64,000 nt of DNA from an uncultured Bdellovibrionales bacterium (GCA_964484195.1 CAZAER010000001.1:639754-703753); one strand, 5' to 3'. Shown: positions 1,204 to 38,012, counted from the first letter of the stretch. Made by a program: numbers and translations. Notes: generated from the letters alone by a model not told the origin.

Positions 1204-1965
1204 TTAGCGGCGAACGCGCGAAGCCGGAGCACCACCCGACGGGGGCGGCGGAACCGGCTGATAGCCCGCGGGCACGGCGTTCGATTGCACCGGACGCGGT
1301 GCGGGCGATGCCGTGTTCGAAGCCTGAGCGGTGCCACGGTACTGCGTCTTGAGCTTGGTCCAGGCGTTGCCGGTCAGGGCGTCGAGCATGGCCTCGATTT
1401 CGCGGGTACGGACGATGAGCGCAGCGCGGGCGCGGGCATCCCCCGGAGGCGCCAGCGTGAAGGCCAACATGTTGTGCTGGCGCGTGTAGTAGAGGCGCGT
1501 GACCTCCTTGATGAGGTCTTCGTGGATACCGACGAGCGCGTACGTGTCGAGCTGCGACGAGTCGAAGATGAGACCCTGGAGACCCCAGCTCACGCCCGCG
1601 GTATAGGCGCGGCCGATGGTGTTGCCGTTCGTGGTGGTTTGCGGGTTCGAAGGGTCGTAGCCCACGCCGGTGGCGATGCGGTCGTTGCCGAGGGTCAGCG
1701 CCTCGTCGTTCTGATAGGTATAGCCACCGCTGATGGTCGGCAGGACGGCGCGCAAGCGCGAGACCAAACGGTAGTAGTTGAGGTCACTCTGGGCGACGCG
1801 GAAGTACTCGACCGCGGCCTTCTGAACCTCGGCGATTGGCGGATCTTGGGCCAGGACGCGCATGGCGCGGTCAACGTCCGCTTCGACGTCAGCTGGGGCG
1901 CTCGGCATTGGGGCGTCGGCCGCACCCTGCGCCAGGCTCATGTAAACGAAAAGGATGACCTTCAT
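1204..1965 (-). CDS. secreted hypothetical protein
   Basis: N-terminal signal peptide MKVILFVYMSLAQGAADA. Amino-acid composition looks like a real protein. Co-directional with the downstream secreted-protein genes. Confidence 0.55.
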   Translation of the reverse strand: MKVILFVYMSLAQGAADAPMPSAPADVEADVDRAMRVLAQDPPIAEVQKAAVEYFRVAQSDLNYYRLVSRLRAVLPTISGGYTYQNDEALTLGNDRIATGVGYDPSNPQTTTNGNTIGRAYTAGVSWGLQGLIFDSSQLDTYALVGIHEDLIKEVTRLYYTRQHNMLAFTLAPPGDARARAALIVRTREIEAMLDALTGNAWTKLKTQYRGTAQASNTASPAPRPVQSNAVPAGYQPVPPPPSGGAPASRVRR

Positions 1966-2005
1966 GACCAGCTCCTAGAAAGAACCTTATCGGTAGAGCA
2001 GCGCG

Positions 2006-3721
2006 TCAGAGCGCGGCTTTCCCGCCAAAAACGTCGAAATATCCGTCCGTCACATAGTTGAGGTAGGCGGCCACTTCGCGCTTCTGCACCTCGAGCTGGG
2101 TGCGTTGCTTGGCATCCAAGCCTTCGCGCTTCAGCTGCAAGGTGGTGTTCGCCCACTTCGTATACGCATCTTCGAAGCGATACGTCAGCCTCCGGCGGAG
2201 GCGCTCGACGTCGGCCCAGCTGCGGTCGGTCGAGCTGCGGGAGCGCAGGAGGTCAGCGAGGTCGAAGGCGATGACGACGCCCCAGTTGTGTCTCTCCGGG
2301 AAGCGCTCGGTGATGCGCATCTCGGTGTTCTGGAAGCCGGTGCGGACGATGTCGTTCAAGAACGTGAGGCCGTTGCCGTCGCGATACGAATACGAGGCCT
2401 TGATGACCGGCATGAGGCCTTGGAGCCGCGCGTCGTCACGTCGGGCGGCCACTTGGGCGGCATCGACCTGATAGTGCCGCAGTGCGATCTCGATGACTTC
2501 CCACATCGGAGCTTTGTTGAAGAGCTCCTGCACGTCGGTCGCGGTCTCGCTCACCCCGCGCGCCACGTCGACCCTCTTGAGCAAAACGTTGCCCATCCAG
2601 ATCATGGCGCCGTCGAAGGTCCGCAGGTCGTCGACGAGGACGAGGTCGATGCTGCGCTGAGTCGGGCGTGTGAAGATGAGGTCGAAGGTCTTGCCGCCGT
2701 CGTGCGAGAGATACACGTCGTCGACCGTGGCGACGAGCATGTGCTCGGCATGTGCGCCCTCGATCTGGAACCAAGCAATCGATTTGTGCGCGAAGCGTTC
2801 GTCGCGGATCCGCAGGAAGCGATTGTGATCGCAGACCGTCACACCGTCGCCGGTGATACCGAACGCCGGACCGTCGGTACGCCAGGTCCAGGCCGGCTCC
2901 GCGTCCTTGCTGTCGTACATGAAGACGCACTCTTCTTCGTAGGTGCGCCGGTCTTCGCTTTCGCGGAACAGGCGGCCACCGGCGAGGATACGCAGGCGCC
3001 CCTCGTAGAAGCCGGCAGTGTTGACTTTGTGGGAAAGCACGAACGGGTTCACGTACTGAAACCAGGAGTCGCCGTAGTCGTAGGTCTCGAGGATCTGCCC
3101 TGTGATCGTCTTGCCGATCATGTGGCCCGGACGCTTGCGGTTGCAGGAGAGCCAGGACACGCGGCCGAGGCCGAGATTGCGGCCGGTCTCGATGATCTCG
3201 AAGCGCAGCGGCTCACCAGGAGCGGCGCGAAAGATTCCGTTCGAAGCGTTGAGAAAGATGTAGTCGAAGCAGCGGTCGATCTGATTGATCTGTCCGGGAT
3301 CGCGGACTTCGTTGGCGACCAGCGAGCCCAAGACCTTCGCTGTCGGTAAGCGTTGGCGGCTGCGCAAGTTACCAGCGAGGTCGAGCGAGCGCTGCGCCGA
3401 TGATACGCGATCGCGGACAGGGATATTGCCGTTGAGCGAGCGCAAGAGATCGAGATTCAGCTGTGGCGTGCGCAGCTGGCGGGTCTTGAGATCGAGCAAG
3501 TTGTCGTACGAGACTGGCTGGAAGACGATCTCCCAGGTCGTACCATTGTCCAAGCTGCGGTAGACCTCGCCCAACACCGTGCCGATCCACAGCTCCTCGG
3601 TGCCCGGGAGCGTACCGACGTAGGTGATGTCGTCGGTGAACGGCTGCCCCATGGTGATCTCGACCCATTCTTGTTGGGCCTGGATCACCAAGGCGGTCAG
3701 TGCGATCGCGATAGCGGTCAC
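2006..3721 (-). CDS. secreted BNR/Asp-box repeat protein
   Basis: Signal peptide present. Several S-x-D-x-G-x-T-W/F Asp-box motifs (SLDNGTTW, SHDGGKTF, DYGDSWF). Confidence 0.65.
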   Translation of the reverse strand: MTAIAIALTALVIQAQQEWVEITMGQPFTDDITYVGTLPGTEELWIGTVLGEVYRSLDNGTTWEIVFQPVSYDNLLDLKTRQLRTPQLNLDLLRSLNGNIPVRDRVSSAQRSLDLAGNLRSRQRLPTAKVLGSLVANEVRDPGQINQIDRCFDYIFLNASNGIFRAAPGEPLRFEIIETGRNLGLGRVSWLSCNRKRPGHMIGKTITGQILETYDYGDSWFQYVNPFVLSHKVNTAGFYEGRLRILAGGRLFRESEDRRTYEEECVFMYDSKDAEPAWTWRTDGPAFGITGDGVTVCDHNRFLRIRDERFAHKSIAWFQIEGAHAEHMLVATVDDVYLSHDGGKTFDLIFTRPTQRSIDLVLVDDLRTFDGAMIWMGNVLLKRVDVARGVSETATDVQELFNKAPMWEVIEIALRHYQVDAAQVAARRDDARLQGLMPVIKASYSYRDGNGLTFLNDIVRTGFQNTEMRITERFPERHNWGVVIAFDLADLLRSRSSTDRSWADVERLRRRLTYRFEDAYTKWANTTLQLKREGLDAKQRTQLEVQKREVAAYLNYVTDGYFDVFGGKAAL

Positions 3722-3730
3722 GTGGCTAGC

Positions 3731-4672
3731 TCAGTCGCCGTTTTCGCACGTAGGTGGACCGATGTTCCCCGTACCGCCGCCGCCAGTGATGATCTCGGGG
3801 GCGAGCACGCGAATCGACGCGATGTTGACGCTCCAGTCCCACGAGTACCAAGACGTCGCGTTGCTGTTGACCGTGATACCGACCCAGCGGGCGCTGATCG
3901 GCGTGCCCACCTGGAACGTGTCTTCACCTCCGTCGCCGTTGACGACCGAGGCGACGACCGACCAACCCGTGGTCGAAGCATCCATGGGACGCGTCGGCGA
4001 GCTCTGCAAGCTCGTCATCACGTCGTATTCGTCGGCGTAGGTGCCGTCGGTGGTCGCGTTCGCCGCCCACACGATCTCGATCTCTTGGATGTTATAGGTC
4101 GTCCCGAGATCGATGTAGAGCGCTGGATACGCGGAGAAGTTGGCGTAGGTGCCGTCGTCTGCGTCGGTGATGTTGCTGATGCCCGAGCCGGCAACGCTCG
4201 CCCCGACCTGCTTGCGCACCGCGACGTCCCGCACCTGACCGGTCGGAGGCGGCGTCGGCTCTTCCGGCGTCTCCTCTTCTTCGTTGATGGACGGGTCGTA
4301 GGTGACGCGGTAGCTCACGACGTCGGAGCGCGAATCATTCAGGCGCTGCACGAAGATCTTGAGGTCGTTGCGACCTTCCTTGAGAGCCACGTCGACGCAG
4401 AAGTTACCGGTGCCCGAGACGTCGGCCGCGGTCGGCGCCGCCCCACCCTCGACAATGATGGTGGCCTCTTTCTCGGCGCTGCCACGAATCGGCAGCGTCG
4501 AAAAGCCCGACATCGTCGTGCGCGTCGTTATGGTCGCGGGCTCGGGCTTGAGCGACTGGGTCTGGCGCTGATCCGAGGGTGTCGACGTGTTGTTGACCGT
4601 CGGCTCGGGCAAATCACCGCAAGCAACCGCCAGAACGGACGAGGTCATCGCCGCAATGAGGAAGCGGGACAT
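3731..4672 (-). CDS. lipoprotein with a C-terminal discoidin (F5/8 type C)-like domain
   Basis: Start MSRFLIAAMTSSVLAVACG carries a lipobox. The C-terminal region (...WYSWDWSVNIASIRV...) resembles a carbohydrate-binding discoidin domain. Its start codon overlaps the stop codon of the upstream gene. Confidence 0.6.
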   Translation of the reverse strand: MSRFLIAAMTSSVLAVACGDLPEPTVNNTSTPSDQRQTQSLKPEPATITTRTTMSGFSTLPIRGSAEKEATIIVEGGAAPTAADVSGTGNFCVDVALKEGRNDLKIFVQRLNDSRSDVVSYRVTYDPSINEEEETPEEPTPPPTGQVRDVAVRKQVGASVAGSGISNITDADDGTYANFSAYPALYIDLGTTYNIQEIEIVWAANATTDGTYADEYDVMTSLQSSPTRPMDASTTGWSVVASVVNGDGGEDTFQVGTPISARWVGITVNSNATSWYSWDWSVNIASIRVLAPEIITGGGGTGNIGPPTCENGD

Positions 4673-6048
4673 CAATCCTCCACAGTGCCGGGCTCGGAGA
4701 ACAGCGGCTCCGGCAACGGCGGGCAAGGACCCTGCTTCTGGTTGAACCCGGGAGCCCAGGTCCAATCGGTGACGTAGGCTTCACCTACTTCGCGGCTGCC
4801 GCCGCATTCGTCATAGCGGATGATGGTGCCGGTGCGCAGGAGCTTCGAGGTCTGGCGGAAGAAGGCGCCGAACCAGTGCGGGAAGACGCTGCGGCTGATG
4901 CCCAAACCGGTGCCCGAGCCGCTCGAGACGCTGCTCGAAACACCGAAGCCGAAACCAACGTTCAAGATCCAGACACTGACGCCGAAGCTGCCGCTCAACG
5001 AGTAGCCACGGCTGCGACCTTCGTTGGTGCTCTCGCTGTAGTTGAAGCTGTTGCCGTTCATGCCACCGGGCAGGCAGCCCGTGACCGCTTGCGGAGCGTA
5101 CACCTCGGTCACCTCGACGTTGCCGTCGTAATAGACCTCGTAGGGCTGGTGCACGGTGAACACCACCATGCGGCGGATCTGATTGCCGGCGCCGTCGGTC
5201 GCGGTGATGCTGACGCCGACGTCACGGCTGGTGCGCACGTCGTTCAAGGTCTCGGGATCGTCGCCGGGCGAGAGCATGCCCGGATCGATGGTGAGGAGCG
5301 TGGAATTTCCGTCGCTAATGCTCGACTCCACGACACGCGGTTGGTCATCGACGGCGACGTAGGCCGCGGTGAGGCCGATCGGCGCATAACCCGACCCCGA
5401 GCCCATGCCGGTCACGGAGAGATCGATGTCAACGAGGTCGCCGTTCAGGACGCCGGGCGCACGCGACGTGTCGCAGGACCGCGAGTACGGCGAGACACGA
5501 TTGACGACGATGGATGGACCGACCTGCACCGTGGTCGTCACCGGCTCGGACTTGGCCTCTTCGTTGCGCTTGCTGACGTTCGTCGCGGTGACCTTGCCGG
5601 TGAACGAGCCAACCGAGAGACCAAAGCCTGCCGGGGTGTCATCGGCTTCGAAGACGAACTCGACGCGGTTCGAGGCGCGATAGACCGCTTTGACTTCCAT
5701 GTCGACGCTACCGCTGCCGCCGCCGTCGCTGCCGGAATAGCTACCGACGAAACGCACCATGACGGTGCCCTTGGATGGGCCAATGAAGTCGCCGCCCAGC
5801 ACCTTGACCGTCGTACCAGCGGACCAGACGGTCGGTGTCACCGCGATGACGTTCGGCGCGGCGAGTGGTTGCGAATCGCCGCCCGCAACGAAGGACGGAT
5901 CGTTCTCGAGGCTCGTTCCGCCGCACGCCGCCGTGATGGCGATCAAAAGGAACACGCCGCCCAGGAGAACCGTGCGCCCGAAGGCTTTACGCAATTGAGA
6001 CAAAGACATCGCGTCCCTCGCCGTGCGAGCGCTCATGCGTTGATTCAA
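4672..6048 (-). CDS. large lipoprotein, hypothetical, probably with Ig/IPT-like beta domains
   Basis: Lipobox LIAITAACGG. Gly/Ser/Thr-rich beta-type composition. First gene of a four-gene secreted-protein operon. Confidence 0.55.
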   Translation of the reverse strand: MNQRMSARTARDAMSLSQLRKAFGRTVLLGGVFLLIAITAACGGTSLENDPSFVAGGDSQPLAAPNVIAVTPTVWSAGTTVKVLGGDFIGPSKGTVMVRFVGSYSGSDGGGSGSVDMEVKAVYRASNRVEFVFEADDTPAGFGLSVGSFTGKVTATNVSKRNEEAKSEPVTTTVQVGPSIVVNRVSPYSRSCDTSRAPGVLNGDLVDIDLSVTGMGSGSGYAPIGLTAAYVAVDDQPRVVESSISDGNSTLLTIDPGMLSPGDDPETLNDVRTSRDVGVSITATDGAGNQIRRMVVFTVHQPYEVYYDGNVEVTEVYAPQAVTGCLPGGMNGNSFNYSESTNEGRSRGYSLSGSFGVSVWILNVGFGFGVSSSVSSGSGTGLGISRSVFPHWFGAFFRQTSKLLRTGTIIRYDECGGSREVGEAYVTDWTWAPGFNQKQGPCPPLPEPLFSEPGTVED

Positions 6049-6295: not shown

Positions 6296-8128
6296 ATGGA
6301 AAGCATCAAAGGCAGCGGAGAGATCAAGAACACAGGCTCAGCCGCCGTCAGCTCCGGGGAAGCACCCGCCCAAGCAACAGAACTCAAGGTCGCGAAGCCT
6401 GCCAACCGCGATTCCGCCGTCCGCAGCAGCGGTCCGATCGCGTTCGCGCCCCGCACCGAGCGCTTCCAGAACCTTGGCGAGGCAGCCTTCTTCGGCCGTG
6501 CCCTCCGCGAGCTCGCCGCAGTCGACAATCCCCGCGCCGTGGCCGCCGACAGCGTCGTCGTTTGGCAACGTGAGAACAACCACACGAGCCAGGGCCAAAC
6601 CCGCATCGTGAAGCTCCCGGGCGTCACCTTGAGCCCAGCCGGCGTCCGCGCCCAGTGGGTGCACGTCACCGGTATGACCCAGCTCGAGACCATCGACAAC
6701 CAGCAGCCCTTCGAGAACGGCTCGAAGGTCACGCGTGACGCTTTCGATCAGGCGAATCTCGTCGCCGACGGCGTCTACACCAACTGGCTGCATTCGCAGG
6801 TCGGCATCGATAACAACAAGCTGTGGGCCGCGCCGCGCAACAACGGCTTCATCCGCAGCAAGGCGAACGCGAGCACCGATCTCAACGCTTGGTACAGCCC
6901 GACCGCGAACGACCAGAACTACGGCACCAACAATGGTCGCTGGCACCTGGCGTCGGACAATGACGTCACCCGCCACGAGACCGGTCACAACCGCGGCGAC
7001 AAGCAGAACCCGGACATGTTCTCGGGTGAAGGCGGCGCCATCCACGAAGGCTACTTCGGCGACTTCCCCGCGTCGCTCATGGCGCGCAACCCCTTCCTCT
7101 CGGAAGACTTCGGGAACGCGTTGGGGCAGCCGGGCCAGCCGCTACGTAACCTCGACAACGACAAGACGCTCCGCCAAGCGGGCAATGAAGTCCACGATCG
7201 CGGAGAGGCCTACGGAGGCTTCGGCTGGCGTGTCACCCAGCAGCTCGGCACCAAGCTCGGTGGCAACTTCGAGCGCGCTTGCGACGTCATGCTCCATGTC
7301 GCCTTGAAGACCGGCTTTTACTTCACGACCAAGTCGCCGTCGCCGAAGGACTTTCTCGACGCCGTCGCCAAGTGCATGCGTGATGCGCTGCCGGGTCTCG
7401 TGGATGCGGCCACAGTCGAGTTCATGATCCAGGCGATCAAGAACGAAGGCGTGAAGCGCGAGATGATCACGGCCGATTGGCAAGAGCCGCCACGCCAGGA
7501 CGCCGACGCCAAGTCGACGCAGCTCGCGCTGGGCCTCCAGGGCAACGCCGCCGTCTGCAGCTCCGACGAAGCCATCGCGGCCATCGGTAATATCTGGGGC
7601 AAGCGCAAGGATTGCGACATCACCGCGGTCGGCGAGCTCGGCTGGGTGAATCCCGAGACCGGTTTGAAGTCGCAAAAGCTCATCATGCAGCTGACCGCGG
7701 TGAGCCCGACGGACGGCAAGCGGTACAAGGTGCAGGATGGCTTCATGTCGATGGTCGCCACCGACAAGGACGTCAGCTCGTTCGATGGCAGCGGCCGCCG
7801 CATCTTCGAGAACGCCGGCTACACGTTCGACTTCACGCCGATTCCTGGTGACCGCGCCGAGCTCATCAAGAAGGCCCGCGAGGCCATCGACAAGTTCGTC
7901 AAGAGTCAGCTCGAGAGCAAGCAGCTCAAGGAGCACTTCGCGGCGAACAAGGTGCGCTTCTTCGACGAGGCGGAGATCGAGATCGAAGAAGTCATGTACA
8001 AGGGCAAGATCAACCTCATGCTGACCTCGCCTGCGGGCCAATTCATCTACGACCATCAGAGCGACAAGGTCGAGGCTCGACGCCTCATGTTCGTCGACTT
8101 CATCCCCGAGAAGAAGCAGAAGGCCTAA
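6296..8128 (+). CDS. thermolysin-like (M4 gluzincin) zinc metallopeptidase, paralog A, with no signal peptide
   Basis: HETGH (HEXXH) followed 25 residues later by GGAIHEGYFGDF, which matches the M4 third-ligand motif GxxNEAxSDxFG. A VHDRG..GG segment sits in the position of thermolysin's catalytic-His region. Roughly 30% identical to the downstream paralog. Confidence 0.7.
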   Translation: MESIKGSGEIKNTGSAAVSSGEAPAQATELKVAKPANRDSAVRSSGPIAFAPRTERFQNLGEAAFFGRALRELAAVDNPRAVAADSVVVWQRENNHTSQGQTRIVKLPGVTLSPAGVRAQWVHVTGMTQLETIDNQQPFENGSKVTRDAFDQANLVADGVYTNWLHSQVGIDNNKLWAAPRNNGFIRSKANASTDLNAWYSPTANDQNYGTNNGRWHLASDNDVTRHETGHNRGDKQNPDMFSGEGGAIHEGYFGDFPASLMARNPFLSEDFGNALGQPGQPLRNLDNDKTLRQAGNEVHDRGEAYGGFGWRVTQQLGTKLGGNFERACDVMLHVALKTGFYFTTKSPSPKDFLDAVAKCMRDALPGLVDAATVEFMIQAIKNEGVKREMITADWQEPPRQDADAKSTQLALGLQGNAAVCSSDEAIAAIGNIWGKRKDCDITAVGELGWVNPETGLKSQKLIMQLTAVSPTDGKRYKVQDGFMSMVATDKDVSSFDGSGRRIFENAGYTFDFTPIPGDRAELIKKAREAIDKFVKSQLESKQLKEHFAANKVRFFDEAEIEIEEVMYKGKINLMLTSPAGQFIYDHQSDKVEARRLMFVDFIPEKKQKA

Positions 8129-8179
8129 AGCAGCAGCGACCAGAGCGTTTCCTCCCTTGCAGTAGGAAGGCGAGTCCGC

Positions 8180-10027
8180 GTGGTAGTCGATACGCGTCTC
8201 TCGGAAACCCGGCACCGAATGGCTCCATCCGTCAAAGCGGATGGGGCCTGCCTGCCTCCGGAACATGCCCGTCCTCGCAGCAAGTCAGGCTTCGAGGACA
8301 TCTTCGTCCGGCTCGCCAACGAGCAGCGGACGGCATCGCCCGCGAGCGTCGCGGCCGTCGTCGACAAATCGACCACGACCGCGCTCGATCTGCGGCTCGC
8401 CGAGGCGCGTCGCGCGGCAGCGGAGAACCCCGGCGCCGAGACTCAGGAAGTGAACCCCGGGAATCTCTTGGTGTGGGCCAAGGAGAATCGGATCACCAGC
8501 CAGGGCAAGGTCACCGAGGTGTCGCTCGAGCGGACAGTGCGCCTCTCGGTCGATGGCTTGAAGATCGAGCTGGTGCACGTGAGCGGCTCGTCGGTCTTGA
8601 AGACCGTGAACGGGCAGCAACCGTTCGCGCCGGGCGAGACCAAAGTCACGCAAGACGGATTCGACCAGGTGCAAGCGCTGCACACCGCCGACACGTTCCT
8701 GCGCCGGCTCGCGGGCTACGGCATCGATCTGGCGTCGGTCTACAAGGACGGCACCAACAACAATGGGCTCGTGCGCATCATCGCCAATGCGATGAGCGAA
8801 GAGAACGCCGGCTACATTCCCGGGTCGAACGTTTACGTGTTCGGTACGGCGGAGGGTCGCTTTCACCTGGTCTCGTGCAAGGAGATCCTCGTCCACGAGC
8901 TGGCCCACGGCTATTTCGATCATGTCGCGCCCGGCGTAAACAGCGACACCGCGGGTGAAGGTAAGCCCTTCCACGAAGCCGTCGGCGACCTGTTCGCCGC
9001 GCTGCACTTCGAGAATCCCAACATCAGCGAAGACCTCGGCGCCTATCTCGCGGAGAAAGAGGGCAACGCCGGAGCACCTGGGCCGCTGCGGACGCTCGTC
9101 AACGACACAGCGCTCGAGCCCAGTCTCAGGCAGGAGCACAAGCGCAGCCTCGTCTACTCCGGCATGGTTTGGTCGGTCACGGAGCGCCTCGCCAAGTCGG
9201 TCGGCATGCGCAAAGCGTGCGACCTGATGCTGGGCGCCGTCGCCAAGGCGCCTTTCTTCGTGACCAACAAGTCGCCATCGCCCGAAGACTGCCTGCGCGC
9301 GATCCTCGAAGGCGTACGTTCGCACATCGGCAAGGTCGAGCCGAAGCTCGCCGACGGTATCCTTGCCGACGTCCAGCAGGAAGCGGTGCGGCGCAAGATC
9401 ACCACTCAGCCGCTCACGGTCGCTGGACCCAACGAGAGCGCCAAGCTCTTCGAAACCTCGTTGTCCGCTATCAAGGAGCAGAGCGCCACCGCCTTCGCTG
9501 GGCTCGCGCGGACCTTGCCCACCCTTGCGAACCGCAGTGAAATCGCTTTCCAGGTCTTGGGCGACCGCCGCTTCGGTGACGTTCGCCGTGTCACCCTGCG
9601 GGCGCTGGTTCAAGATCCGAACAGCCGCAAGCAGGTGCCGGTCGAAGACGGCAATCTCGAGGTCGTGGTCGACGGCGGTTGCGTGCGCTACCTCGAAGGG
9701 CTGGCGCTCCAACTCCCGGAGAAGTTCGACTTCACGGTCCGTGACGGCGGCGACCCACGCACGCACTTGGCACGCGCCAAGCGCTTGGTGGCGGACCACC
9801 TCACGCAGCTCGCCGAGCACGACCCGAGCGCCGCCACGGTGTGCCGCGGCCTCGACACGTTGTTCGACGACGCAAACCTCGTGGTGCGGCCCATCCTCGC
9901 GGACGGTTTGCTGCAGCTCGAGGTCATCACCCTCGCCGGTGAGTTCATCGTCGACGTCGAGCACAGCGTGGTGCGGACCCGCCGCCTCATGCACGTCTAC
10001 GACATCGAGGAGCATGCCCACGGCTGA
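8180..10027 (+). CDS. thermolysin-like (M4 gluzincin) zinc metallopeptidase, paralog B, with no signal peptide
   Basis: VHELAHGYFDH plus GKPFHEAVGDLFA, i.e. HEXXH followed by the NEAxSDxFG-like motif. Blocks shared with paralog A include NGQQPF, FDQ, NNG, PLRxL and KSPSP(K/E)D. The start could instead be at MAPSVK. Confidence 0.7.
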   Translation: MVVDTRLSETRHRMAPSVKADGACLPPEHARPRSKSGFEDIFVRLANEQRTASPASVAAVVDKSTTTALDLRLAEARRAAAENPGAETQEVNPGNLLVWAKENRITSQGKVTEVSLERTVRLSVDGLKIELVHVSGSSVLKTVNGQQPFAPGETKVTQDGFDQVQALHTADTFLRRLAGYGIDLASVYKDGTNNNGLVRIIANAMSEENAGYIPGSNVYVFGTAEGRFHLVSCKEILVHELAHGYFDHVAPGVNSDTAGEGKPFHEAVGDLFAALHFENPNISEDLGAYLAEKEGNAGAPGPLRTLVNDTALEPSLRQEHKRSLVYSGMVWSVTERLAKSVGMRKACDLMLGAVAKAPFFVTNKSPSPEDCLRAILEGVRSHIGKVEPKLADGILADVQQEAVRRKITTQPLTVAGPNESAKLFETSLSAIKEQSATAFAGLARTLPTLANRSEIAFQVLGDRRFGDVRRVTLRALVQDPNSRKQVPVEDGNLEVVVDGGCVRYLEGLALQLPEKFDFTVRDGGDPRTHLARAKRLVADHLTQLAEHDPSAATVCRGLDTLFDDANLVVRPILADGLLQLEVITLAGEFIVDVEHSVVRTRRLMHVYDIEEHAHG

Positions 10028-10064: not shown

Positions 10065-11009
10065 GTGCGTGCTAGCTTTCGCACGCCCATGAGGTCGCTC
10101 CGCGTCATCACGCTTGCCGCACTCGCAGCCGCTGGTTGCAGCCCTGGCCCCGTGCCCGCGCCGCCCTCGCCTTCGCCGGACACGACCGCCGCGGTGCCAG
10201 CCGCGGATGCCGATGCCGCCAACGCTGGCGCCGGAGCACCGCTCGATCTCGACGCCCAAGCGCGCGCCGCCTGGGCCGGACGCACCGACCGCGCCTCGCT
10301 CGGCCGCGCCATCGATTGCTGGCTGCGCCTGTCGGAATCACGCCCGGACGATCCGCAGCCCCTACTCGCCTTGTCGCGCGCCTACGTCACGCTCGCGGAC
10401 TTTCACCTGCGTGCTCCAGCGGACATGGCGCAGCGGGCTGACGCGCTCGAGCGCGCCATCGACACGGCGGAACGGGGCTTGCTCGCGAGCTCACCCGCGT
10501 TCGCCGCGGCCGTGAAGCGCGGTGTCAGCATCGAGGAAGCGGTGAAGTCCGTCGAGGCCGACAAGATGGACGCGCTCGCGGTCTACGGCACGAGCCTCGC
10601 GCACTACGGCATCGACAAGGGCTTCACAGCGCTCCTCATGTATCGCGGCCGCCTCGTCGCGGCGATGCAGCGCGTACTCGAGGTCGCACCCAAAACGGAG
10701 CACGCCGCCGCCGACCGTGAGCTCGGCACCTTCTTCGCTCGGGTTCCGGGCTTCGCCGGAGGCGACCTCAATCGCTCCCGCGAGCACTTCGACAAGGCAT
10801 TGACGCTTGCGCCCGAGACCCTGACGACGAAGCTGCGCTACGCCGAGACCTACGCCATCGAAGCCAAAAATCGCGAGCTGTTCGCCCGCCTCTTGAGCGA
10901 GGTCAAAGCCGCCGATGCCGGTGAGCCCGAGCTCGCGCCCGACAATCTCTTGGCAAAGCGACGGGCCGACTTGCTGGCGGCGTCGATCGATGATCTGTTC
11001 GCGCGATGA
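10065..11009 (+). CDS. TPR-like lipoprotein, possibly TatT-like
   Basis: Lipobox LAALAAAGCS. Helical repeat composition. Its stop overlaps the next gene's start (ATGA). Confidence 0.55.
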   Translation: MRASFRTPMRSLRVITLAALAAAGCSPGPVPAPPSPSPDTTAAVPAADADAANAGAGAPLDLDAQARAAWAGRTDRASLGRAIDCWLRLSESRPDDPQPLLALSRAYVTLADFHLRAPADMAQRADALERAIDTAERGLLASSPAFAAAVKRGVSIEEAVKSVEADKMDALAVYGTSLAHYGIDKGFTALLMYRGRLVAAMQRVLEVAPKTEHAAADRELGTFFARVPGFAGGDLNRSREHFDKALTLAPETLTTKLRYAETYAIEAKNRELFARLLSEVKAADAGEPELAPDNLLAKRRADLLAASIDDLFAR

Positions 11010-11848
11010 GCGCCAATCGCACCCAGCTCACCCTCACCTCCGACGACGGCACCCAGCTCTTCGCCCAGCGCTGGTCTCCGTTGGGGGAGCCGCGCGCCGC
11101 CCTGCTCGTGGTTCATGGCTATGCCGAGCATGGCGAACGCTATCGCGAGCTGGGCCTCACCCTCGCCGAGCGCGGCATCGATACGCTGGCGGTCGACCTG
11201 CGCGGGCACGGACGGTCGGCCGGTCAGCGCGGCTTCGTCGACCGCTTTAGCGAGTACCACGCCGACGCCGACGCGGCTCTCGCGGCGATGACGGCGGCGC
11301 ACGCGGGTCGCGGCTTGCCCCGTTTCGTCCTTGCTCACAGCAACGGCGGCCTCGTCGCGCTCGATTGGATATCGACACGCAAGCCCGACATCCGCGGGTT
11401 GGTCCTCTCGAACCCATTCCTCGAGGTCGCCTTCAAGGTGCCGAAGCTCAAGCTCGGCGTCGGCCACCTAGCGGCACGGCTGGCCCCGCGCATCGCGTTA
11501 CCCTCGGGTATTCCGCCGGAAGGCTTGTCGCACGAGTCCGCTATCGTCGACGCCTATCGCCGCGACCCGATGATCTATTCGACGGTCACGGCCGGCTACT
11601 TCCGCGCTTCGCGCGAGGCTCAAGCCCGTGTCCGCGCCCTTCGCCGGCTCGACGTGGCGCTGCTGTACGCCTACAGCGATGCCGACCCCGTCGCCTCCCC
11701 CCAGGCCAACGCGGCGCTCGCGCAAGCGCTCGACAGCCCCGACAAGACTGTCATCGTGCGCACCGGCGAATTTCACGAGATCCTGAACGAAACCAATCGC
11801 GCCGAGCTCATGGCCAGGGTCGGCGACTGGGTTCTCGCCCACGCCTAG
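11006..11848 (+). CDS. alpha/beta hydrolase of the lysophospholipase/monoacylglycerol lipase family
   Basis: HG oxyanion motif (LLVVHGYAEH) and nucleophile elbow AHSNGG (GxSxG). Confidence 0.75.
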   Translation: MSANRTQLTLTSDDGTQLFAQRWSPLGEPRAALLVVHGYAEHGERYRELGLTLAERGIDTLAVDLRGHGRSAGQRGFVDRFSEYHADADAALAAMTAAHAGRGLPRFVLAHSNGGLVALDWISTRKPDIRGLVLSNPFLEVAFKVPKLKLGVGHLAARLAPRIALPSGIPPEGLSHESAIVDAYRRDPMIYSTVTAGYFRASREAQARVRALRRLDVALLYAYSDADPVASPQANAALAQALDSPDKTVIVRTGEFHEILNETNRAELMARVGDWVLAHA

Positions 11849-32621: not shown

Positions 32622-32700
32622 GCCCCCGTAGCTCAGATGGATAGAGCTGGGGTTTCCTAAACCCTGTAAGCCACAGGTTCGATTCCTGTCGGGGGCACCA
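32622..32700 (+). tRNA. tRNA-Arg (anticodon CCU)
   Basis: Acceptor stem GCCCCCG/CGGGGGC, T-arm ACAGG-TTCGATT-CCTGT, anticodon loop TTCCTAA, 3' ACCA. The 3' 23 nt are duplicated at 45111-45133. I could not resolve the variable-loop length cleanly by eye. Confidence 0.75.
32678..32700 (+). repeat. attL core, the 3' end of tRNA-Arg
   Basis: Identical 23-mer. Similarity to the partner site continues with mismatches for about 15 further bp. Confidence 0.8.
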
Positions 32701-32804
32701 TACAACAGTCCGGCGACGTCCGAGATAGTCCGCAAACCGCCGTAAGTACTGAAAATTGCGCGGCTTGATGGTTCGGTCAGGTCCGGCGGCGTACATTGAC
32801 ATCC

Positions 32805-32860
32805 GACGGTAACAGTCGGTAGCTCTGACGGTAACTCGACCCGGCGTGGGAGTTACCGTC
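32805..32860 (+). promoter_or_regulatory. GACGGTAAC repeats, two direct and one inverted, immediately upstream of the integrase start codon
   Basis: GACGGTAAC at 32805-32813 and 32827-32835. Inverted copy GTTACCGTC at 32852-32860. Two further copies (GACGGTAAC, GACGGTAGC) occur at 45047-45067 near attR. Confidence 0.4.
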
Positions 32861-34078
32861 ATGGCCCTGACTGAAACGAAGGTGCGCAACGCTAAGGCCG
32901 GCGCGAAGCCGTTCAAGGTCACGGACGGCGGTGGGCTCTACCTGTTGGTCACTCCCGCAGGCGGGCGTTGGTGGCGCTTCGACTACCGCTTTGCCGGCAA
33001 ACGCAAGACTCTCTCGATGGGCGTCTACCCTGACGTCTCGCTGAAACAAGCGCGTGAGCGTCGCGACGATGCGCGCCGCCGAGTCGCCGACGGTGTCGAT
33101 CCGGGCACCGCTCGGCAGCTCGAAAAATCCGGGCGCGCAGATCGCAGCGCCAACAGCTTCGAGGTTGTCGCGCGCGAGTGGCTCGCGAAATTTTCCCCGT
33201 CGTGGACCGCCGAATATGCGGAGCGCCTCGAGAGTCGCCTCGAGCGCGACGTATTCCCGTGGATCGGAGCGAGGCCCATAGGCGACGTGACCGCACCGGA
33301 GCTACTCACCGTGCTGCGCCGGATCGAAGCGCGCGGCGTGACCGAAACTGCTCACCGCGCCCTTCAAGATTGCGGGCGCGTCTTCTGCTACGCCGTCGCG
33401 ACCGGTCGCGCTGACCGCGATCCGTCGAGCGACCTGCGCGGAGCACTCGCGCCTGTTCGCCAAAAGCACTTCGCTTCGATCACCGATCCAGTGGCAGTCG
33501 GTGACCTGCTGCGCTCCATCGATGGCTACGAGGGCTCGGCCGTTACTCGATGCGCGATCCGCCTTGCACCCCTTGTCTTCGTCCGTCCCGGCGAGCTTCG
33601 ACACGCAGAGTGGAATGAATTCAACCTCGGCACGGCTGAGTGGCGCATCCCTGCCGCCAAGATGAAGATGCGCGACCCCCACATCGTTCCGCTATCGCGG
33701 CAGGCCGTCGACATCCTTCGCGCGCTGCACCCACTCACCGGCCACGGCCGCTACCTGTTCCCCGGCGTCCGCACAGCGCTCCGCCCGATGAGTGAGAACA
33801 CGGTGAACGCATCGTTGCGCCGCCTCGGCTTCACCAAAGACGAGATGACGGGCCACGGCTTCCGCAGCATGGCGTCGACGCTACTCAACGAGCAAGGCTG
33901 GAACCGCGACGCCATCGAGCGCCAACTCGCCCACGTTGAGCGCAACGCCGTGCGCGCCGCGTACAACTACGCTGAGCACCTGCCCGAGCGTCGCAAGATG
34001 ATGCAGGCGTGGGCGGATCACCTTGACGACCTTCGCGCCGGTGGCCGTCAAGTCGTGCGCATGATCCCCGCGGTGTAG
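32861..34078 (+). CDS. int: tyrosine recombinase/integrase, P4 type
   Basis: N-terminal DUF4102-like arm-binding region (LTETKVRNAKAG..GGGLYLLVTPAGGRWWRFDYRF) and a catalytic C-terminus with the R...HxxR...Y pattern (HGFRSMAST, RQLAHVE, Y). It is adjacent to a tRNA. Confidence 0.9.
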   Translation: MALTETKVRNAKAGAKPFKVTDGGGLYLLVTPAGGRWWRFDYRFAGKRKTLSMGVYPDVSLKQARERRDDARRRVADGVDPGTARQLEKSGRADRSANSFEVVAREWLAKFSPSWTAEYAERLESRLERDVFPWIGARPIGDVTAPELLTVLRRIEARGVTETAHRALQDCGRVFCYAVATGRADRDPSSDLRGALAPVRQKHFASITDPVAVGDLLRSIDGYEGSAVTRCAIRLAPLVFVRPGELRHAEWNEFNLGTAEWRIPAAKMKMRDPHIVPLSRQAVDILRALHPLTGHGRYLFPGVRTALRPMSENTVNASLRRLGFTKDEMTGHGFRSMASTLLNEQGWNRDAIERQLAHVERNAVRAAYNYAEHLPERRKMMQAWADHLDDLRAGGRQVVRMIPAV

Positions 34079-34090
34079 CCCAGGCCGCCG

Positions 34091-34288
34091 TCACCCATCA
34101 CAAGCGCAGCCGGTCGGTTGATGACACTCGAGCTGCCGATTGATGCAGGAATTGCCACAAGCCTTTCCCGTTGTGCAGATACGACAACACGCCATCGGGG
34201 TCGCGTCTTCGATCTCAATACATGCGTTCGCCGGCTGCATGCCCGCTGAACCGATGCCCATCAAGAAGCTTAGAACGAAACCAAGCAT
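34091..34288 (-). CDS. small Cys-rich protein with a hydrophobic N-terminus, hypothetical
   Basis: MLGFVLSFLMGIGSAG...ACCRICTTGKACGNSCINRQLECHQPTGCACDG. It occupies the otherwise empty gap after int. It may equally be the tail of an antisense artefact. Confidence 0.2.
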   Translation of the reverse strand: MLGFVLSFLMGIGSAGMQPANACIEIEDATPMACCRICTTGKACGNSCINRQLECHQPTGCACDG

Positions 34289-34394
34289 CGAGTGCTCCAC
34301 TCTCCCCGAGGAAAAGCATACTCGATGCGCTATCGCGGTGCGGCTGAAGCGCCGTTCACGATAGGCACCCCATGACGGCCTCGCCGGTTTCGCT

Positions 34395-35084
34395 TTGGTG
34401 GCGCAACATGCTACGTTTTGGCGGATGGCTGCTCGCCGGATTATCGGGGTGCTCGTAGGACTCTGTGTGTTCCTAATCGTGCCGCGCCTCTGTCGCGCAG
34501 CGAGAACGCACAAATGCTTTGTCTCGATCGCCGTACCGGACGGCGGCTTCACCCCTGAAGCGAAGGTTGACGTGCAGTTCTTCGTTGGAAGCGAGCTCAA
34601 CGCCTCGCTCGACGCACAGCGATTTCCCCCGGCGGCCGCCATCGCTGTCTTCGCTCTGCAAAAGGACATTGTTGTGGCCGTTCGCCTCTCATCGCCTGTT
34701 AGGGTTGAGGCTCCGTTGGTAGATAACGACATGGACGCGTTGTTTCGCGGAGTGCCCCACCTTCTCGGTGTTGATGGGGCGGCTAAGGGATGGCGATTGC
34801 GCTGCAAAGACCGAGGGCAATGGCTGGATGCGGCAGCGCGGCGACCGCTAGCGCCGGCCGCTCCCCGGCGTCGCGCAAGCGCCTGCGATAGCGGGCATTG
34901 GCTCGACAAGGTGTCGATGAATGGCGAGATCCTCGTGCTGGAAGATGGTTCGGTTTGGAGGGTGGATCCGGTCGACGCTGTCGACACCTCGCTATGGCTC
35001 CCTACGGAAGAAGTCGTCGCCTGCGACGACACCATCATCAACACCGACAATGGCGAGAAGGCTGATGCGATTCAGATCCGATAG
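34395..35084 (+). CDS. hypothetical membrane-anchored protein
   Basis: N-terminal transmembrane helix IIGVLVGLCVFLIV. C-terminal folded-looking domain (GEILVLEDGSVWRVDPVDAVDTSLW...IINTDNGEKADAIQI). Lower-GC DNA. Confidence 0.45.
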   Translation: MVAQHATFWRMAARRIIGVLVGLCVFLIVPRLCRAARTHKCFVSIAVPDGGFTPEAKVDVQFFVGSELNASLDAQRFPPAAAIAVFALQKDIVVAVRLSSPVRVEAPLVDNDMDALFRGVPHLLGVDGAAKGWRLRCKDRGQWLDAAARRPLAPAAPRRRASACDSGHWLDKVSMNGEILVLEDGSVWRVDPVDAVDTSLWLPTEEVVACDDTIINTDNGEKADAIQIR

Positions 35085-35086
35085 CG

Positions 35087-35287
35087 TTGAGCGGGAAGAT
35101 GGATCGAACTGAAGCAGCAAGACACGCCGGTGATTGCCTGGTGCGACTGAAGGCCGCGATGACCGCGCATGCTGCAGTGCCGTCGGGTGACGCCGAGAAG
35201 TTCGGGGAGACCTGGCTGGAACTCCACCGCGCCCACAGAGACTACTGCGAAGCGTTCGCCGTTTTTGAGGCTCTCTCCAAGCCCTAG
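35087..35287 (+). CDS. small helical hypothetical protein
   Basis: Starts 3 nt after the previous stop. Composition is plausible for a real protein. Confidence 0.35.
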   Translation: MSGKMDRTEAARHAGDCLVRLKAAMTAHAAVPSGDAEKFGETWLELHRAHRDYCEAFAVFEALSKP

Positions 35288-35588
35288 GGCCAGGAGTGAT
35301 GCGCGCAGGGCGCACGCGTCGAAATCCACGGCTAGCCCCTGCCGCAGAAGCCGCACAATCCGCAGAACTGCTTGGCCGTCCCTGAGAACAGGGTCTGAGC
35401 AGGGCCCGCCAAGCCGGCTCCTGGCCGATTCTGCGGTCGAAGCGGCACGTTCGCCCGATTCGTCGGACGGGCCGCGTATGTTCGGCGTGATCAGCGCGAC
35501 GATTTGATCACCGTCGCGCGCGGGTCTCGGTAGAGCGCGGTATGCGAAACTCCCGCGCTCCGCCGAGCCCGCAGCCGGAGTTTCGCAG

Positions 35589-37757
35589 ATGAATGATACA
35601 CCTCGCGGTGACGCGCAGAGCGTCGTCGATCGCCTTCAGTCCAGTCTTACCGAGATGCACGCGGCGCTCGCCAAGACCGTGGCCGCGCTCAACGCGCCGA
35701 TCACCATCGTCGAGCCCGATTCGAGCTTGCCGCCTGACGAGCGCTCAATGGCTCGTGCCGAGGCGCAAGCACAGGCGCGGCGCCAACAAGGCTCGCCCGA
35801 GTTGTGGAAGATGGCGGCGCTACGGACGCGCTTGGAAGCAGAGCACGGGGCGGCAGTTGACGAGCTTGCCGTCGTCGCAGCCCTCGCGGGTGTCACGGTC
35901 GACCGCGCGGCTTTGACTGCCCCGTTCGAGCATTTCTCGAACCTGTTGCGAAGCCGGGGTTCCGACAGCACCTACGCGAGGCGACTTCAGGCGATCCCTG
36001 CACGGGTCGATACGCTCGCCCGGGCGTCCGCGCACCTGATCGACGTCGCGCGGAAGCTAGGATGTCGCCTGATCGCCGATGAGCCACGGCCCCCTCGAGA
36101 GACCCAGCCGTTACTGCCGGCCGCTAAGGCAAAACCCTGGTGGGCGGCAGACGGGTTCAAGCTGGAAAGCGTTTACGCTCAGTTACGTCTCGAGGTCGAC
36201 GACGCCATCGCTGGGCTCGACGACGCAACCGATGATCATGCAGTCGCTGCGCTCTTGCCCGGCTTTGCGGCAGCCGACATTGCGCACTGCCGTGACGAGA
36301 AGGTGCACCCGCTCGACCATTGGGTGGCGTCCGAGATTGCCGATCTAGTCGACGCCGAGCTTAGCGAGATTCTCGCTCGTGAGCCGCAACGCAACCGCTT
36401 CCGCCTGAAGAATGGCGCCGAGGTTACGGACGATACGCTTCAGCGGACGGCAGTCAGCCGCTATCGCTCTGGCATCGCACAATCCGCCAAGCCGGCAGAC
36501 ACCCCGGCCAAGGCCATCGCCCAGCTTCATGCGGGCTGCGATGTACTGGCCACTGCTTTTGCACGTGCTCTCGCGGCGCACACCGCGAGGATTGGTGCGC
36601 TGAAAATCGATGACGCCATCGCCGACCCGGAGGAGGCGCGCGAAGCGGCAGAACTCGACGCCATGGAAGCGAGAGGCTACCCCGAGCTCTTCGATTCTGT
36701 CCTGTTGAGGGCGCGAGTCGAGGAAGAGCAGACTGCGGCGCTTAACCGGCTGATTGGCTTCGCAGCCCAATCCCGCGCCGGCGTCGCCGTCGACCGGGCC
36801 GTGTTGACCGCACCGCACGCCTCGTTCGGCCATCTGCTGCATCCCGGTCAGCGGCATGCGAGCCGCGCCAAATGGCTGCAAGAAATGCTTGAACGGACAA
36901 TACCGGCTGCGCGCGCCCACCTAACGCAGCTAGCCTCCCGTCTGGGCGTCGAGCTGCAACACGGTCGCGACTGGCTGGCCTGTCGAAAAGTGCCCTGGAG
37001 CGCGACCGCTGAAACGGACACGTGGCGGCAGGTAAAGTCCGACCTTCGGACCTTGGATCGGGACGCGGTTCGCGAAATCCTCGGCGTCGATGAAGCTGAC
37101 CTTCGAGGCCTTGAGCTTCAACGAGACGAGCTGCAACAGACGAGCGGTTGGCGCACTTGCCCTGGCGAGGCCCACGTCGCCGACGTCTGGGCAATTCGAG
37201 ACATCGAATGGACGCCGCGGACCCTCGACCAAGTTTTTCACGATGGCGACTATGGCTCCGGCGCCAATCCCGATCGGCAATACAGGGTCGCGGGGGCGAG
37301 TGACGTCATTGACCCACGAGAGATCCAAGCGCGAGCCGCCCGGCAGATCCGCGCGGCGCTCGAGACGCTAGGGCGAACCTCGGCAGGCGCTAAAACGGAC
37401 GTCCCGCTGGCGCCGACCAAGAGCGCGCCTCTTCATTCATCGGACTTCACTTCGGTGACGCACGGCGGGGAGTCGTATCGCTTTTCCAAACGGCAGGCCG
37501 CGGCCATAGCGCTGCTTTGGCGCGAGTGGGCGCGAGGCACGCCTACCATCGCGGAGGAGACGCTCGCCGAAGAGCTTGATCCCAATTCGGAACGCGACCC
37601 CAAGCGCTTTCGGTTGCGCGACATCTTCAAAGGCAAGACGAAGGGCAAGAACGGCAAGCATCGGGCGCAGATGCACCCCGCGTGGGGCACGATGATCATC
37701 GTCGCGGAGGGCATCGCTCGCCTGTCGTTCGCAGAAAAGGGAATTTCCCCCAGCTAG
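35589..37757 (+). CDS. large hypothetical island protein with an internal tandem-duplicated domain
   Basis: Two roughly 90-aa segments clearly align: ...PELWKMAALRTRLEAEHGAAVDELAVVAALAGVTVDRAALTAPFEHFSNLL... against ...PELFDSVLLRARVEEEQTAALNRLIGFAAQSRAGVAVDRAVLTAPHASFGHLL... I recognise no known domain. Confidence 0.6.
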   Translation: MNDTPRGDAQSVVDRLQSSLTEMHAALAKTVAALNAPITIVEPDSSLPPDERSMARAEAQAQARRQQGSPELWKMAALRTRLEAEHGAAVDELAVVAALAGVTVDRAALTAPFEHFSNLLRSRGSDSTYARRLQAIPARVDTLARASAHLIDVARKLGCRLIADEPRPPRETQPLLPAAKAKPWWAADGFKLESVYAQLRLEVDDAIAGLDDATDDHAVAALLPGFAAADIAHCRDEKVHPLDHWVASEIADLVDAELSEILAREPQRNRFRLKNGAEVTDDTLQRTAVSRYRSGIAQSAKPADTPAKAIAQLHAGCDVLATAFARALAAHTARIGALKIDDAIADPEEAREAAELDAMEARGYPELFDSVLLRARVEEEQTAALNRLIGFAAQSRAGVAVDRAVLTAPHASFGHLLHPGQRHASRAKWLQEMLERTIPAARAHLTQLASRLGVELQHGRDWLACRKVPWSATAETDTWRQVKSDLRTLDRDAVREILGVDEADLRGLELQRDELQQTSGWRTCPGEAHVADVWAIRDIEWTPRTLDQVFHDGDYGSGANPDRQYRVAGASDVIDPREIQARAARQIRAALETLGRTSAGAKTDVPLAPTKSAPLHSSDFTSVTHGGESYRFSKRQAAAIALLWREWARGTPTIAEETLAEELDPNSERDPKRFRLRDIFKGKTKGKNGKHRAQMHPAWGTMIIVAEGIARLSFAEKGISPS

Positions 37758-37796
37758 CCCCCCGCTGGGCCCCGCGCGTCGCGCGACAACGCGACC

Positions 37797-38012
37797 ATGC
37801 AACAGCTCGTAAGCCTTCGGGCACTAGTCAGACACCTGCGACGCAGGTTCGGCGATGCGGACGCCGCGCAGCTTCGTCGAGATGCGCAGGCGGGCATCAT
37901 TCCCAGCGTGAGGTTGGGCGCGGCCCTCGCCTTCGACATTGGCGCCGTGGAGGCGGCGCTACTCGCGCGCGCTCGTGATGCCGCGAAAGCGCACGATGGG
38001 GGTGCGACGTGA
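37797..38012 (+). CDS. excisionase-family HTH protein, putative
   Basis: ...AGIIPSVRLGAALAFDIGAVEAALL resembles the Xis-family motif GELPAVRIGRRLRFRREDLEAFL. Its stop overlaps the alpA start (GTGA). Confidence 0.4.
   Translation: MQQLVSLRALVRHLRRRFGDADAAQLRRDAQAGIIPSVRLGAALAFDIGAVEAALLARARDAAKAHDGGAT

Follow-up and report, generated by a model that had tools for sequence, protein, structure and literature searches.

Tandem thermolysin-fold metallopeptidases lacking signal peptides and carrying a C-terminal FTP- and PepSY-like unit in an uncultured Bdellovibrionales bacterium

The locus described here is part of a stretch of 64,000 nucleotides from an uncultured Bdellovibrionales bacterium (GCA_964484195.1, CAZAER010000001.1:639754-703753), called the window throughout, and is formed by two adjacent genes, A and B. 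Both are predicted to encode zinc metallopeptidases of the thermolysin type in which the usual order of domains is permuted: the chain begins without a signal peptide, the catalytic domain comes first and a unit resembling the FTP and PepSY propeptide of classical relatives follows it. The genes, their predicted domains, the active-site segments and the neighbouring genes are collected in Table 1, with positions counted from the first nucleotide of the window.

The start codon of each gene is the first one past an in-frame stop, so there is no room for a hidden upstream signal peptide in either protein. Shine-Dalgarno-like sites (GGAG and AGGAAGG) were identified 9-12 nucleotides upstream of the A and B starts. 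The GTG start of B is kept at the same position in all four B orthologs (8180 in the window; 2350, 7888 and 3927 in the orthologous loci L003, L006 and L007, respectively). One database prediction of the B protein of the window (P0001, 602 residues) begins at Met14 instead, and a protein with exactly the sequence of A is present in public assemblies. The two genes are separated by 51 nucleotides in which no terminator-like site was found, and a promoter and terminator scan gave nothing above the shuffled expectation. The proteins (610 and 615 residues) are 31% identical across 550 residues (E 4e-65), in agreement with the initial annotation, which had described two tandem reading frames of about 610 residues and about 30% identity, each with an HEXXH motif, a third-ligand motif and a His-containing segment. 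In BLAST comparisons the distance between A and B is no smaller than that of either to the protease modules found in giant fusion proteins; the split between them is therefore old. The ratio of nonsynonymous to synonymous substitution rates (dN/dS), calculated between the window genes and three orthologous loci, lies at 0.13-0.35 in A and in B, the catalytic domain having the lowest values (0.05-0.27), and both genes are kept under purifying selection.

Table 1. Predicted genes, domains and active-site segments of the locus, with the neighbouring genes.
Feature	Position	Strand	Description	Basis
Gene A	6296-8128	+	ATG start, 610 residues; predicted thermolysin-fold zinc metallopeptidase without signal peptide	Open reading frame and translation, AlphaFold2 (AF2) model, Foldseek
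A, residues 1-85	6296-6550	+	Polar, disordered N-terminal stretch confined to the A/B clade; no signal peptide	pLDDT, hydrophobicity
A, residues 86-392	6551-7471	+	Catalytic domain, predicted thermolysin fold	Foldseek, hhalign, dN/dS
A, HETGH (H227, E228, H231)	6974-6988	+	Two putative zinc ligands and catalytic Glu	Aligned to thermolysin H142-E143-H146
A, G246-D256 (GGAIHEGYFGD)	7031-7063	+	Putative third zinc ligand E251, D256	Aligned to thermolysin E166, D170
A, R284 to H300	7145-7195	+	Equivalents of thermolysin R203 and H231 (substrate binding, transition-state His)	hhalign, MAFFT
A, residues 398-508	7487-7819	+	C-terminal module 1, FTP-like (two helices and four long beta-strands)	hhalign, sub-threshold Pfam
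A, residues 512-603	7829-8104	+	C-terminal module 2, PepSY-like (helical hairpin and four-stranded sheet, ending AGQFIYDHQSDKV)	hhalign, sub-threshold Pfam
Gene B	8180-10027	+	GTG start, 615 residues; paralog of A with matching architecture	Open reading frame and translation, alignment to A
B, HELAH (H239, E240, H243)	8894-8908	+		Sequence, family alignment
B, G261-D270 (GKPFHEAVGD)	8960-8989	+	Putative third zinc ligand E266, D270	Sequence, family alignment
B, R304 to H320	9089-9139	+	Equivalents of thermolysin R203 and H231	Family alignment, MAFFT
B, residues 409-611	9404-10012	+	FTP-like and PepSY-like unit, then conserved His-rich tail (EEHAHG)	Full-length alignment to the A C-terminus; part of the A/B-clade profile
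TatT-family tetratricopeptide repeat (TPR) lipoprotein	10065-11009	+	Context only	PF16811, 102 bits
Alpha/beta hydrolase	11006-11848	+	ATGA overlap with the preceding gene; context only	Hydrolase_4/Abhydrolase in a syntenic genome
Four divergent genes (253, 571, 344 and 458 residues)	1204-6048	-	Signal- or lipoprotein-like N-termini; context only	

Of the two proteins A alone was modelled with AF2, as a full-length chain and on a 20-sequence alignment, and the fold of B is taken from its 31% full-length alignment to A. The model of A has a mean pLDDT (predicted local distance difference test) of 77.5 and a pTM (predicted template modelling score) of 0.77, with residues 1-74 and 601-610 disordered. 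All 25 matches of this model in the PDB at E <= 0.001 by Foldseek were M4 enzymes, including LasB, aureolysin, vibriolysin, thermolysin, ProA, gentlyase and protealysin, with target-normalised template modelling (TM) scores of 0.47-0.68 and sequence identities of 13-16%. For the catalytic domain against LasB, aureolysin, vibriolysin and thermolysin the target-normalised TM scores were 0.55-0.68, and hhalign covers thermolysin residues 94-206 with the same domain.

The active-site positions were assigned by profile alignment, which places the NAWY strand of A on thermolysin N112-A113, the HExxH motif on 142-146, E251 on E166, D256 on D170, the SED motif on G189-E190-D191 and L283-R284 on L202-R203; residues 118-177 of the thermolysin sequence used in the hhalign and MAFFT mapping agree with the PDB alignment. 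When canonical relatives were included in a MAFFT alignment, H300 of A fell on the GGVH(231) segment of thermolysin and on the EVHDDGEIW motif of M36-like proteins. A and B share the third-ligand segment G-x-x-H-E-[GA]-x-x-D, while the His segment reads NEVHDRG in A (H300) and RQEHKRS in B (H320). The ligands of the thermolysin Ca1/2 site, E190 and D191, are matched by the SED motif, which is conserved in the family. In 94 family sequences, mostly representatives of 50%-identity clusters, A198, H227, E228, H231, E251, D256, R284 and H300 are 100% conserved, and all of them are present in B. The features of clan MA(E) were thus identified at this locus (HExxH and a Glu third ligand about 20 residues downstream in A and B; a two-lobed thermolysin fold in the A model), and the earlier assignment of both proteins to the gluzincins of the thermolysin clan stands. 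From the invariant active site and from the dN/dS values, lowest in the catalytic domain, A and B are very probably active thermolysin-type endopeptidases and no pseudo-enzymes.

Searches with curated models gave little. For A there was no match in Pfam or NCBIfam, and for B the sole Pfam match was M36 with 14.9 bits, under a cutoff of 23.3; neither this nor a chance match to IscA in these scans gave a usable assignment. The M4 models (PF01447 and PF02868), which the initial annotation had proposed as a check, matched neither A nor B at E <= 10. PF01447 was weakly matched by 10 of 20 relatives (best E 3e-5; all listed bit scores below the 22.4-bit cutoff), weak matches to M4 or M36 models were found in half of the close family members, and one member (P0030) passes the Pfam M36 cutoff (PF02128, 30.1 against 23.3 bits). 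By phmmer against PDB sequences nothing was found for A, and the best match of B was thermolysin with E 0.56.

The family containing A and B is small. A word-indexed search of 5.8 billion proteins returned only 15 relatives of A and 7 of B; the named ones are hypothetical proteins, and the labelled ones come from metagenome-assembled genomes (MAGs) of Myxococcota or Deltaproteobacteria. When 1.84 billion cluster representatives were searched exhaustively with a profile, 101 proteins were identified at E < 1e-30, most of them with end-to-end matches. The second tier (E ~1e-18) matches the catalytic core only and comprises signal-bearing M36/M4-like enzymes with FTP propeptides according to Pfam. 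Among species-representative genomes the family was present in three Myxococcota MAGs, one Bdellovibrio MAG, two 'delta proteobacterium' MAGs and four poorly classified MAGs. The style of its motifs (GGAIHEGFGD and EVHDRGxVYGGFxW) is nearer to bacterial M36-like proteins than to thermolysin. Judged by these profiles and motifs, the family is a rare, uncharacterised sister group of M36/M4 and no protealysin-like subgroup; it borders M36, yet A and B fall below the curated thresholds of both M36 and M4. The placement in M4 proper, as first proposed, was consequently abandoned, with no M4 Pfam match for A or B and with M36-like nearest relatives in the profile search.

Five giant proteins of the A/B clade (P0046, P0055, P0058, P0062 and P0078; 1,000-1,600 residues) carry the catalytic-FTP-PepSY module at their C-terminal end, without a signal peptide. 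Their N-terminal 950 residues or so have no Pfam matches, with the exception of Kelch/P-domain in P0046, and contain repeated segments of the type DGxxSxxExxAL.

Signal peptides were assessed by the most hydrophobic 10-residue window within the first 45 residues on the Kyte-Doolittle scale. The maximum was 0.43 in A and 0.8 in B, against 2.5-3.6 in signal-bearing M4/M36 relatives, and it stayed below 2.0 across about 130 family sequences with the exception of two lipoprotein-like members. The lack of a Sec signal peptide, already noted for A and B in the initial annotation, therefore appears to be a trait of the whole family apart from those two members. The N-terminal extension of A and B comprises about 85-95 residues, and in A residues 1-74 have a pLDDT below 50. 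Its dN/dS (0.33-0.42) is the highest among the three regions of A. Most family members lack the extension and start 10-40 residues ahead of VWxxENRxSS, the first conserved motif of the catalytic domain, so no N-terminal prodomain can fit in them. A more distant branch (P0104-P0145) presents paired cysteines at the extreme N-terminus (for example MGSMRCEGNVCHH... and MAGPECTDKACKY...), which may form a small metal- or disulfide-stabilised cap before the catalytic domain.

The region that follows the catalytic domain in A and B comprises about 210 residues. Modelled separately, it reached a pLDDT of 89 and formed two modules, each built of helices and then a sheet of four strands. The sequences of 93 family members gave a profile of the region, and hhalign aligned it to one built from the N-terminal propeptides of 22 canonical M36/M4-like relatives (from residue 26 to 135 residues before HExxH) with a probability of 97.7%, E 1.3e-12 and a score of 80.5 over 122 colinear columns. 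Module 1 falls on the FTP motif (GGxRxxYQQxYxT...vxVxGxG in the family, HvrfxQxxxGxPVxGaxvxVh in the canonical propeptides) and module 2 on the PepSY-type motif (LxYxFxxGxxxYYVxAxTGxV and lxWrvxv...VDAxsGxvl, respectively); module 2 alone reached 94.9% and E 4e-8 against the propeptide profile. In P0147 the aligned canonical segment lies inside the stretch that Pfam calls FTP. The controls scored much lower than the real comparison: 13-14 with reversed profiles, at most 12 in 20 column shuffles, 11.8 for the catalytic domain of the family against the propeptide profile and at most 32 in 20 block shuffles of 12 columns, where local motif blocks were still found.

Other searches gave the same order of modules. 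When 30 C-terminal segments were compared singly with Pfam, PepSY was matched in 5, being the sole family found in more than two members, and FTP in 2; the FTP matches precede the PepSY ones, occupying the first and the second half of the segment, respectively, and one protein had both in that order. In full-length P0038, FTP was identified at 384-405, after the HExxH at 159. Reciprocal searches with hidden Markov models gave weak matches that lie N-terminal to HExxH in canonical proteins and nearly all C-terminal to it in the family, with colinear model coordinates. The two modules were also considered as recent duplicates of one another; this was rejected, as hhalign of module 1 against module 2 gave no internal-repeat signal. 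Taken from these profile comparisons, the C-terminal unit of the family appears to be homologous to the FTP and PepSY-type propeptide, and the domain order to be catalytic-FTP-PepSY. Two statements of the initial annotation are modified by this. The lack of a classical propeptide is correct for the N-terminus and fails at the other end of the chain, where hhalign places a propeptide homolog; equally, the roughly 100 unique N-terminal residues were recovered as the 85-95 clade-specific ones, whereas the 200 C-terminal residues also held to be unique belong to this apparent homolog. In a literature survey of incomplete coverage, neither the family of A and B nor any C-terminal FTP/PepSY arrangement was found to be described.

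A different arrangement was seen in P0122 (1263 residues), a signal-bearing M36-like protein with FTP at about 240-310, HEYGH at 540, a second FTP at about 790-865 and a second HEYGH at 1091, that is, two complete propeptide and catalytic units in one chain (signal-pro-Cat-pro-Cat). A Cat-pro order could arise by truncation of a duplication-fusion form like this one, which is given as an illustration and is no evidence of ancestry.

Several observations weigh against a propeptide homolog at the C-terminus or against its working in the classical manner. The A/B clade alone matched the propeptide profile weakly, in the same register (hhalign probability 28%, E 6e-4), and because of this the propeptide homology of A and B themselves rests on transitivity; the link is the match of the A/B-clade C-terminus to that of subfamily (i) in the rest of the family (92%, E 6.5e-7, 166 columns), together with full-length profile matches. 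The Pfam matches to FTP (PF07504) and PepSY (PF03413) were all sub-threshold, the best being E 0.0034 (17.6 against 21 bits) and E 0.024 (15.4 against 24 bits), respectively, and A and B had none. A Foldseek search with the C-terminal model gave nothing significant in the PDB; its 50 best matches contained no M4/M36 prodomain, and what appeared was weak and NTF2-like. The C-terminal profile of the family gave noise against PDB sequences. Finally, classical precursors have about 20 or more residues between the PepSY-like module and the cleavage site at the active site, whereas the chain stops 10-20 residues past this module in the family, and the last 10 residues of A were left unplaced by AF2. 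The classical inhibitory geometry cannot apply unchanged, because the chain ends too soon.

The end of the chain is itself regular. In the larger subfamily the C-terminus lies 10-11 residues beyond the 'TG' motif of the PepSY-like module, at a fixed distance and with a conserved [DN]-V-[LF]-[WV]-[DN] end, which suggests that the free C-terminus is functionally constrained. A and B carry only about 9 residues beyond this end, a Lys-rich tail in A (PEKKQKA) and a His-rich one in B (EEHAHG). Docking of the tail in the active site, as in a classical propeptide, was considered and rejected, because in most members the tail would have to be about 20 residues longer and in the model it is unplaced. 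The His-rich tail is conserved in the B lineage (EEHAHG, EHAHAH; 10013-10024 in the window) and is alike in the giant protein P0078 (AEHSHDG); a role in metal binding or latency is conceivable.

With these points on both sides, A and B are probably active endopeptidases of thermolysin mechanism and permuted architecture, having no signal of Sec or Tat type, no N-terminal prodomain and a C-terminal FTP and PepSY-type unit. The zinc would be bound by both His of HExxH and by the Glu 20-22 residues downstream, the Glu of HExxH would act as the general base, the substrate backbone would be held by Arg284 (A) or Arg304 (B) and the NA(W/G)Y strand, and His300 or His320 would stabilise the transition state. 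In classical M4 precursors the FTP and PepSY modules are an intramolecular chaperone and inhibitor. The C-terminal unit may take over this role as a folding aid and a means of latency, in which case a protease of broad specificity could be synthesised in the cytoplasm without a signal peptide, and its activation would need the unit to be removed or displaced. The pTM of A, high for a protein with 95 disordered residues of 610, suggests a defined packing of its two halves in the model. Four or more Myxococcota species have kept both copies under purifying selection, which points to specificities that are not redundant.

What would be new here is the architecture; the mechanism appears to be of the known thermolysin/fungalysin type. 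The closest relatives outside the family, at E ~1e-18, are bacterial M36 enzymes, fungalysin-like proteins with a signal and an FTP propeptide such as MepA of Myxococcus xanthus (MXAN_3564), with which the family shares the third-ligand motif GGAxxEGFGD and the His motif EVHxxGxxW. In M36 enzymes the signal and the propeptide precede the catalytic domain, whereas in the family of A and B the apparently homologous unit follows it and there is no signal. Thermolysin, LasB (pseudolysin), aureolysin and vibriolysin MCP-02 have the fold, the zinc ligands and the catalytic residues in common with A and B; the identity of A to M4 enzymes is nevertheless only 13-16%, the Pfam M4 and M4_C models are not matched above threshold and the domain order is permuted without a signal. 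The classical M4 precursor, a signal and then an FTP/PepSY propeptide before the catalytic domain, is a form that A and B do not have.

A further step is to regard A and B as natural domain-permuted zymogens, members of a thermolysin-clan family that would be the first to have its FTP-PepSY chaperone and inhibitor translated after the catalytic domain, and whose folding and latency would have to be achieved unlike those of all M4/M36 precursors studied; this is offered tentatively. If it were true, a broad-specificity protease could be stockpiled in the cytoplasm of a predatory bacterium and released without the Sec pathway, and the prodomain of A might act in trans on B. To our knowledge, propeptide-assisted folding and latency are textbook traits of the thermolysin family and every studied precursor has its prodomain ahead of the catalytic domain. 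The reverse order without an export signal would allow one to ask whether FTP-PepSY must be made first as a folding template, how latency is kept when the tail of the prodomain cannot enter the active site and how a broad-specificity protease is tolerated in the cytoplasm. About 100 clusters of 'hypothetical proteins' from metagenomic genomes of Myxococcota and Bdellovibrio type would gain an annotation (catalytic, FTP-like, PepSY-like). Should the C-terminal unit prove unrelated, the finding would shrink to a divergent M36/M4-like subfamily of modest interest.

A less likely reading is one in which A and B are never exported and act as regulatory or housekeeping proteases of the cytoplasm, with the C-terminal FTP-PepSY unit as a permanent regulatory lid and no removable prodomain. 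The absence of signal peptides across the family agrees with it, as does the packing of both halves as one rigid body that the high pTM suggests for the model. The neighbourhoods of distant family members, which adjoin housekeeping genes such as dnaG and rpoD without partner genes, are a weak pointer in the same direction. PepSY domains also keep other hydrolases inactive without being cleaved, as set out for YpeB with SleB (PMC13556211). YpeB is a protein of its own whose target is a peptidoglycan lytic enzyme, whereas in A and B the PepSY-like module is fused C-terminally to a metallopeptidase; by analogy, we infer that module 2 may play a YpeB-like inhibitory role. A rare and patchy family is a poor fit to a core function, and the conserved equivalents of the Ca-site ligands fit an extracellular enzyme better. 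In addition, we know of no other thermolysin-fold enzyme that serves as a cytoplasmic housekeeping protease.

Somewhat less likely, A and B are effectors or toxins of a predatory bacterium that leave the cell by a non-classical route (outer-membrane vesicles, an apparatus like the type III secretion system or of Kil type, or lysis), with the polar N-terminus as the targeting element. This concerns their destination only and is compatible with the permuted zymogen. The taxon-labelled members come from MAGs of Myxococcota, Bdellovibrio or 'Deltaproteobacteria', lineages with predators among them; the N-terminal ends of A and B, like those of the giant fusion relatives, are non-hydrophobic and rich in Ser, Thr, Gly and Pro, and the conserved Ca1/2-site ligands (SED motif) hint at an extracellular setting. 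Outer-membrane vesicles of M. xanthus are enriched in its M36 homolog MepA, and when MepA is disrupted the extracellular protease activity falls (PMC4158809). These are weak pointers to export. Against them, no secretion-system genes were found within the window, and the effector or toxin pair suggested at first gained no support from this housekeeping environment. Distant homologs adjoin housekeeping genes, and no partner gene, whether for an inhibitor, a chaperone or immunity, was found to recur around them, the synteny being local to the lineage. The N-terminal extension is missing from most family members. PADLOC gave no link to defence systems for A, B or the four upstream genes, no phage match was found and the only match in a plasmid collection was a remote Bacillus M4-like protein.

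It is rather improbable that A and B are ordinary divergent M4/M36 peptidases whose last 200 residues form an unrelated accessory alpha/beta domain, of NTF2-like type for example, with a convergent or spurious likeness to FTP and PepSY. The failure of Foldseek to find a prodomain, its weak NTF2-like best matches, the sub-threshold Pfam scores and the 28% of the A/B clade all speak for such a domain. The alignment of the family profile is, however, colinear across both modules with clean controls, FTP and PepSY are the sole recurring Pfam families and stand in the right order, and the positions in the reciprocal searches are consistent with them.

An intracellular M4 pair of the protealysin-like protease (PLP) type under an inhibitor of the emfourin type is very improbable. 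PLPs are reported to have a short N-terminal propeptide and a paired small inhibitor gene (emfourin). Protealysin and the A and B proteins are alike in being thermolysin-fold enzymes without a signal peptide and with a short N-terminal extension, and protealysin is described as intracellular (PMC9505478). Unlike PLPs, A and B have the C-terminal FTP-PepSY-like unit, and no small inhibitor gene adjoins them, the place being taken by the TatT lipoprotein and the hydrolase. The protealysin precursor (2VQX) was also the last of the 25 M4 structural matches (E 7e-4, TM 0.47), the Pfam M4 models were not matched and the closest sequence relatives are M36-like. Last, it is hardly credible that A or B is a catalytically dead pseudo-protease, for although B has diverged at semi-conserved positions (NAGY for NAWY, SCKE for SDND, EHKRS for VHDRG), all zinc ligands and catalytic residues are present in both proteins and invariant across the family, and the catalytic dN/dS is low.

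The genes around A and B are those named in the initial annotation: a TPR lipoprotein and an alpha/beta hydrolase downstream and four genes with signal- or lipoprotein-like N-termini on the opposite strand. The lipoprotein and the hydrolase are possibly co-transcribed with A and B. The four minus-strand genes had no assignment in Pfam or PADLOC except for a weak F5/8 type C match. This order, the four divergent genes facing away from A, B, the TatT-family lipoprotein and the hydrolase, is kept in three further Myxococcota MAG species, so that the tandem is conserved in four; identities of the orthologs in the three are 89, 83 and 74% for A and 85, 82 and 70% for B. Elsewhere in the family the gene is single and has different neighbours.

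The rest of the window is formed by chromosomal housekeeping genes, including pstCAB-phoU, RNase E, der, era, mnmA and the CCA-adding enzyme. One more peptidase was identified at 56124-59069, 46 kb downstream: an M1-family aminopeptidase of 981 residues (Peptidase_M1_N, M1 and ERAP1_C) beside an arginase-family gene, with no evident link to A or B. Rfam matched no RNA element near A and B, and its sole match in the window was a tRNA at 32.6 kb (32622-32697). After this tRNA come genes for a tyrosine integrase (32846-34078), for a DUF3987 protein (39249-40895) and for an abortive-infection protein of AIPR type (41965-43308). From 32622 to 43308 the third-position GC content is 0.74-0.78, against about 0.8-0.9 in the flanks, and the segment looks like an integrated island with a defence gene.

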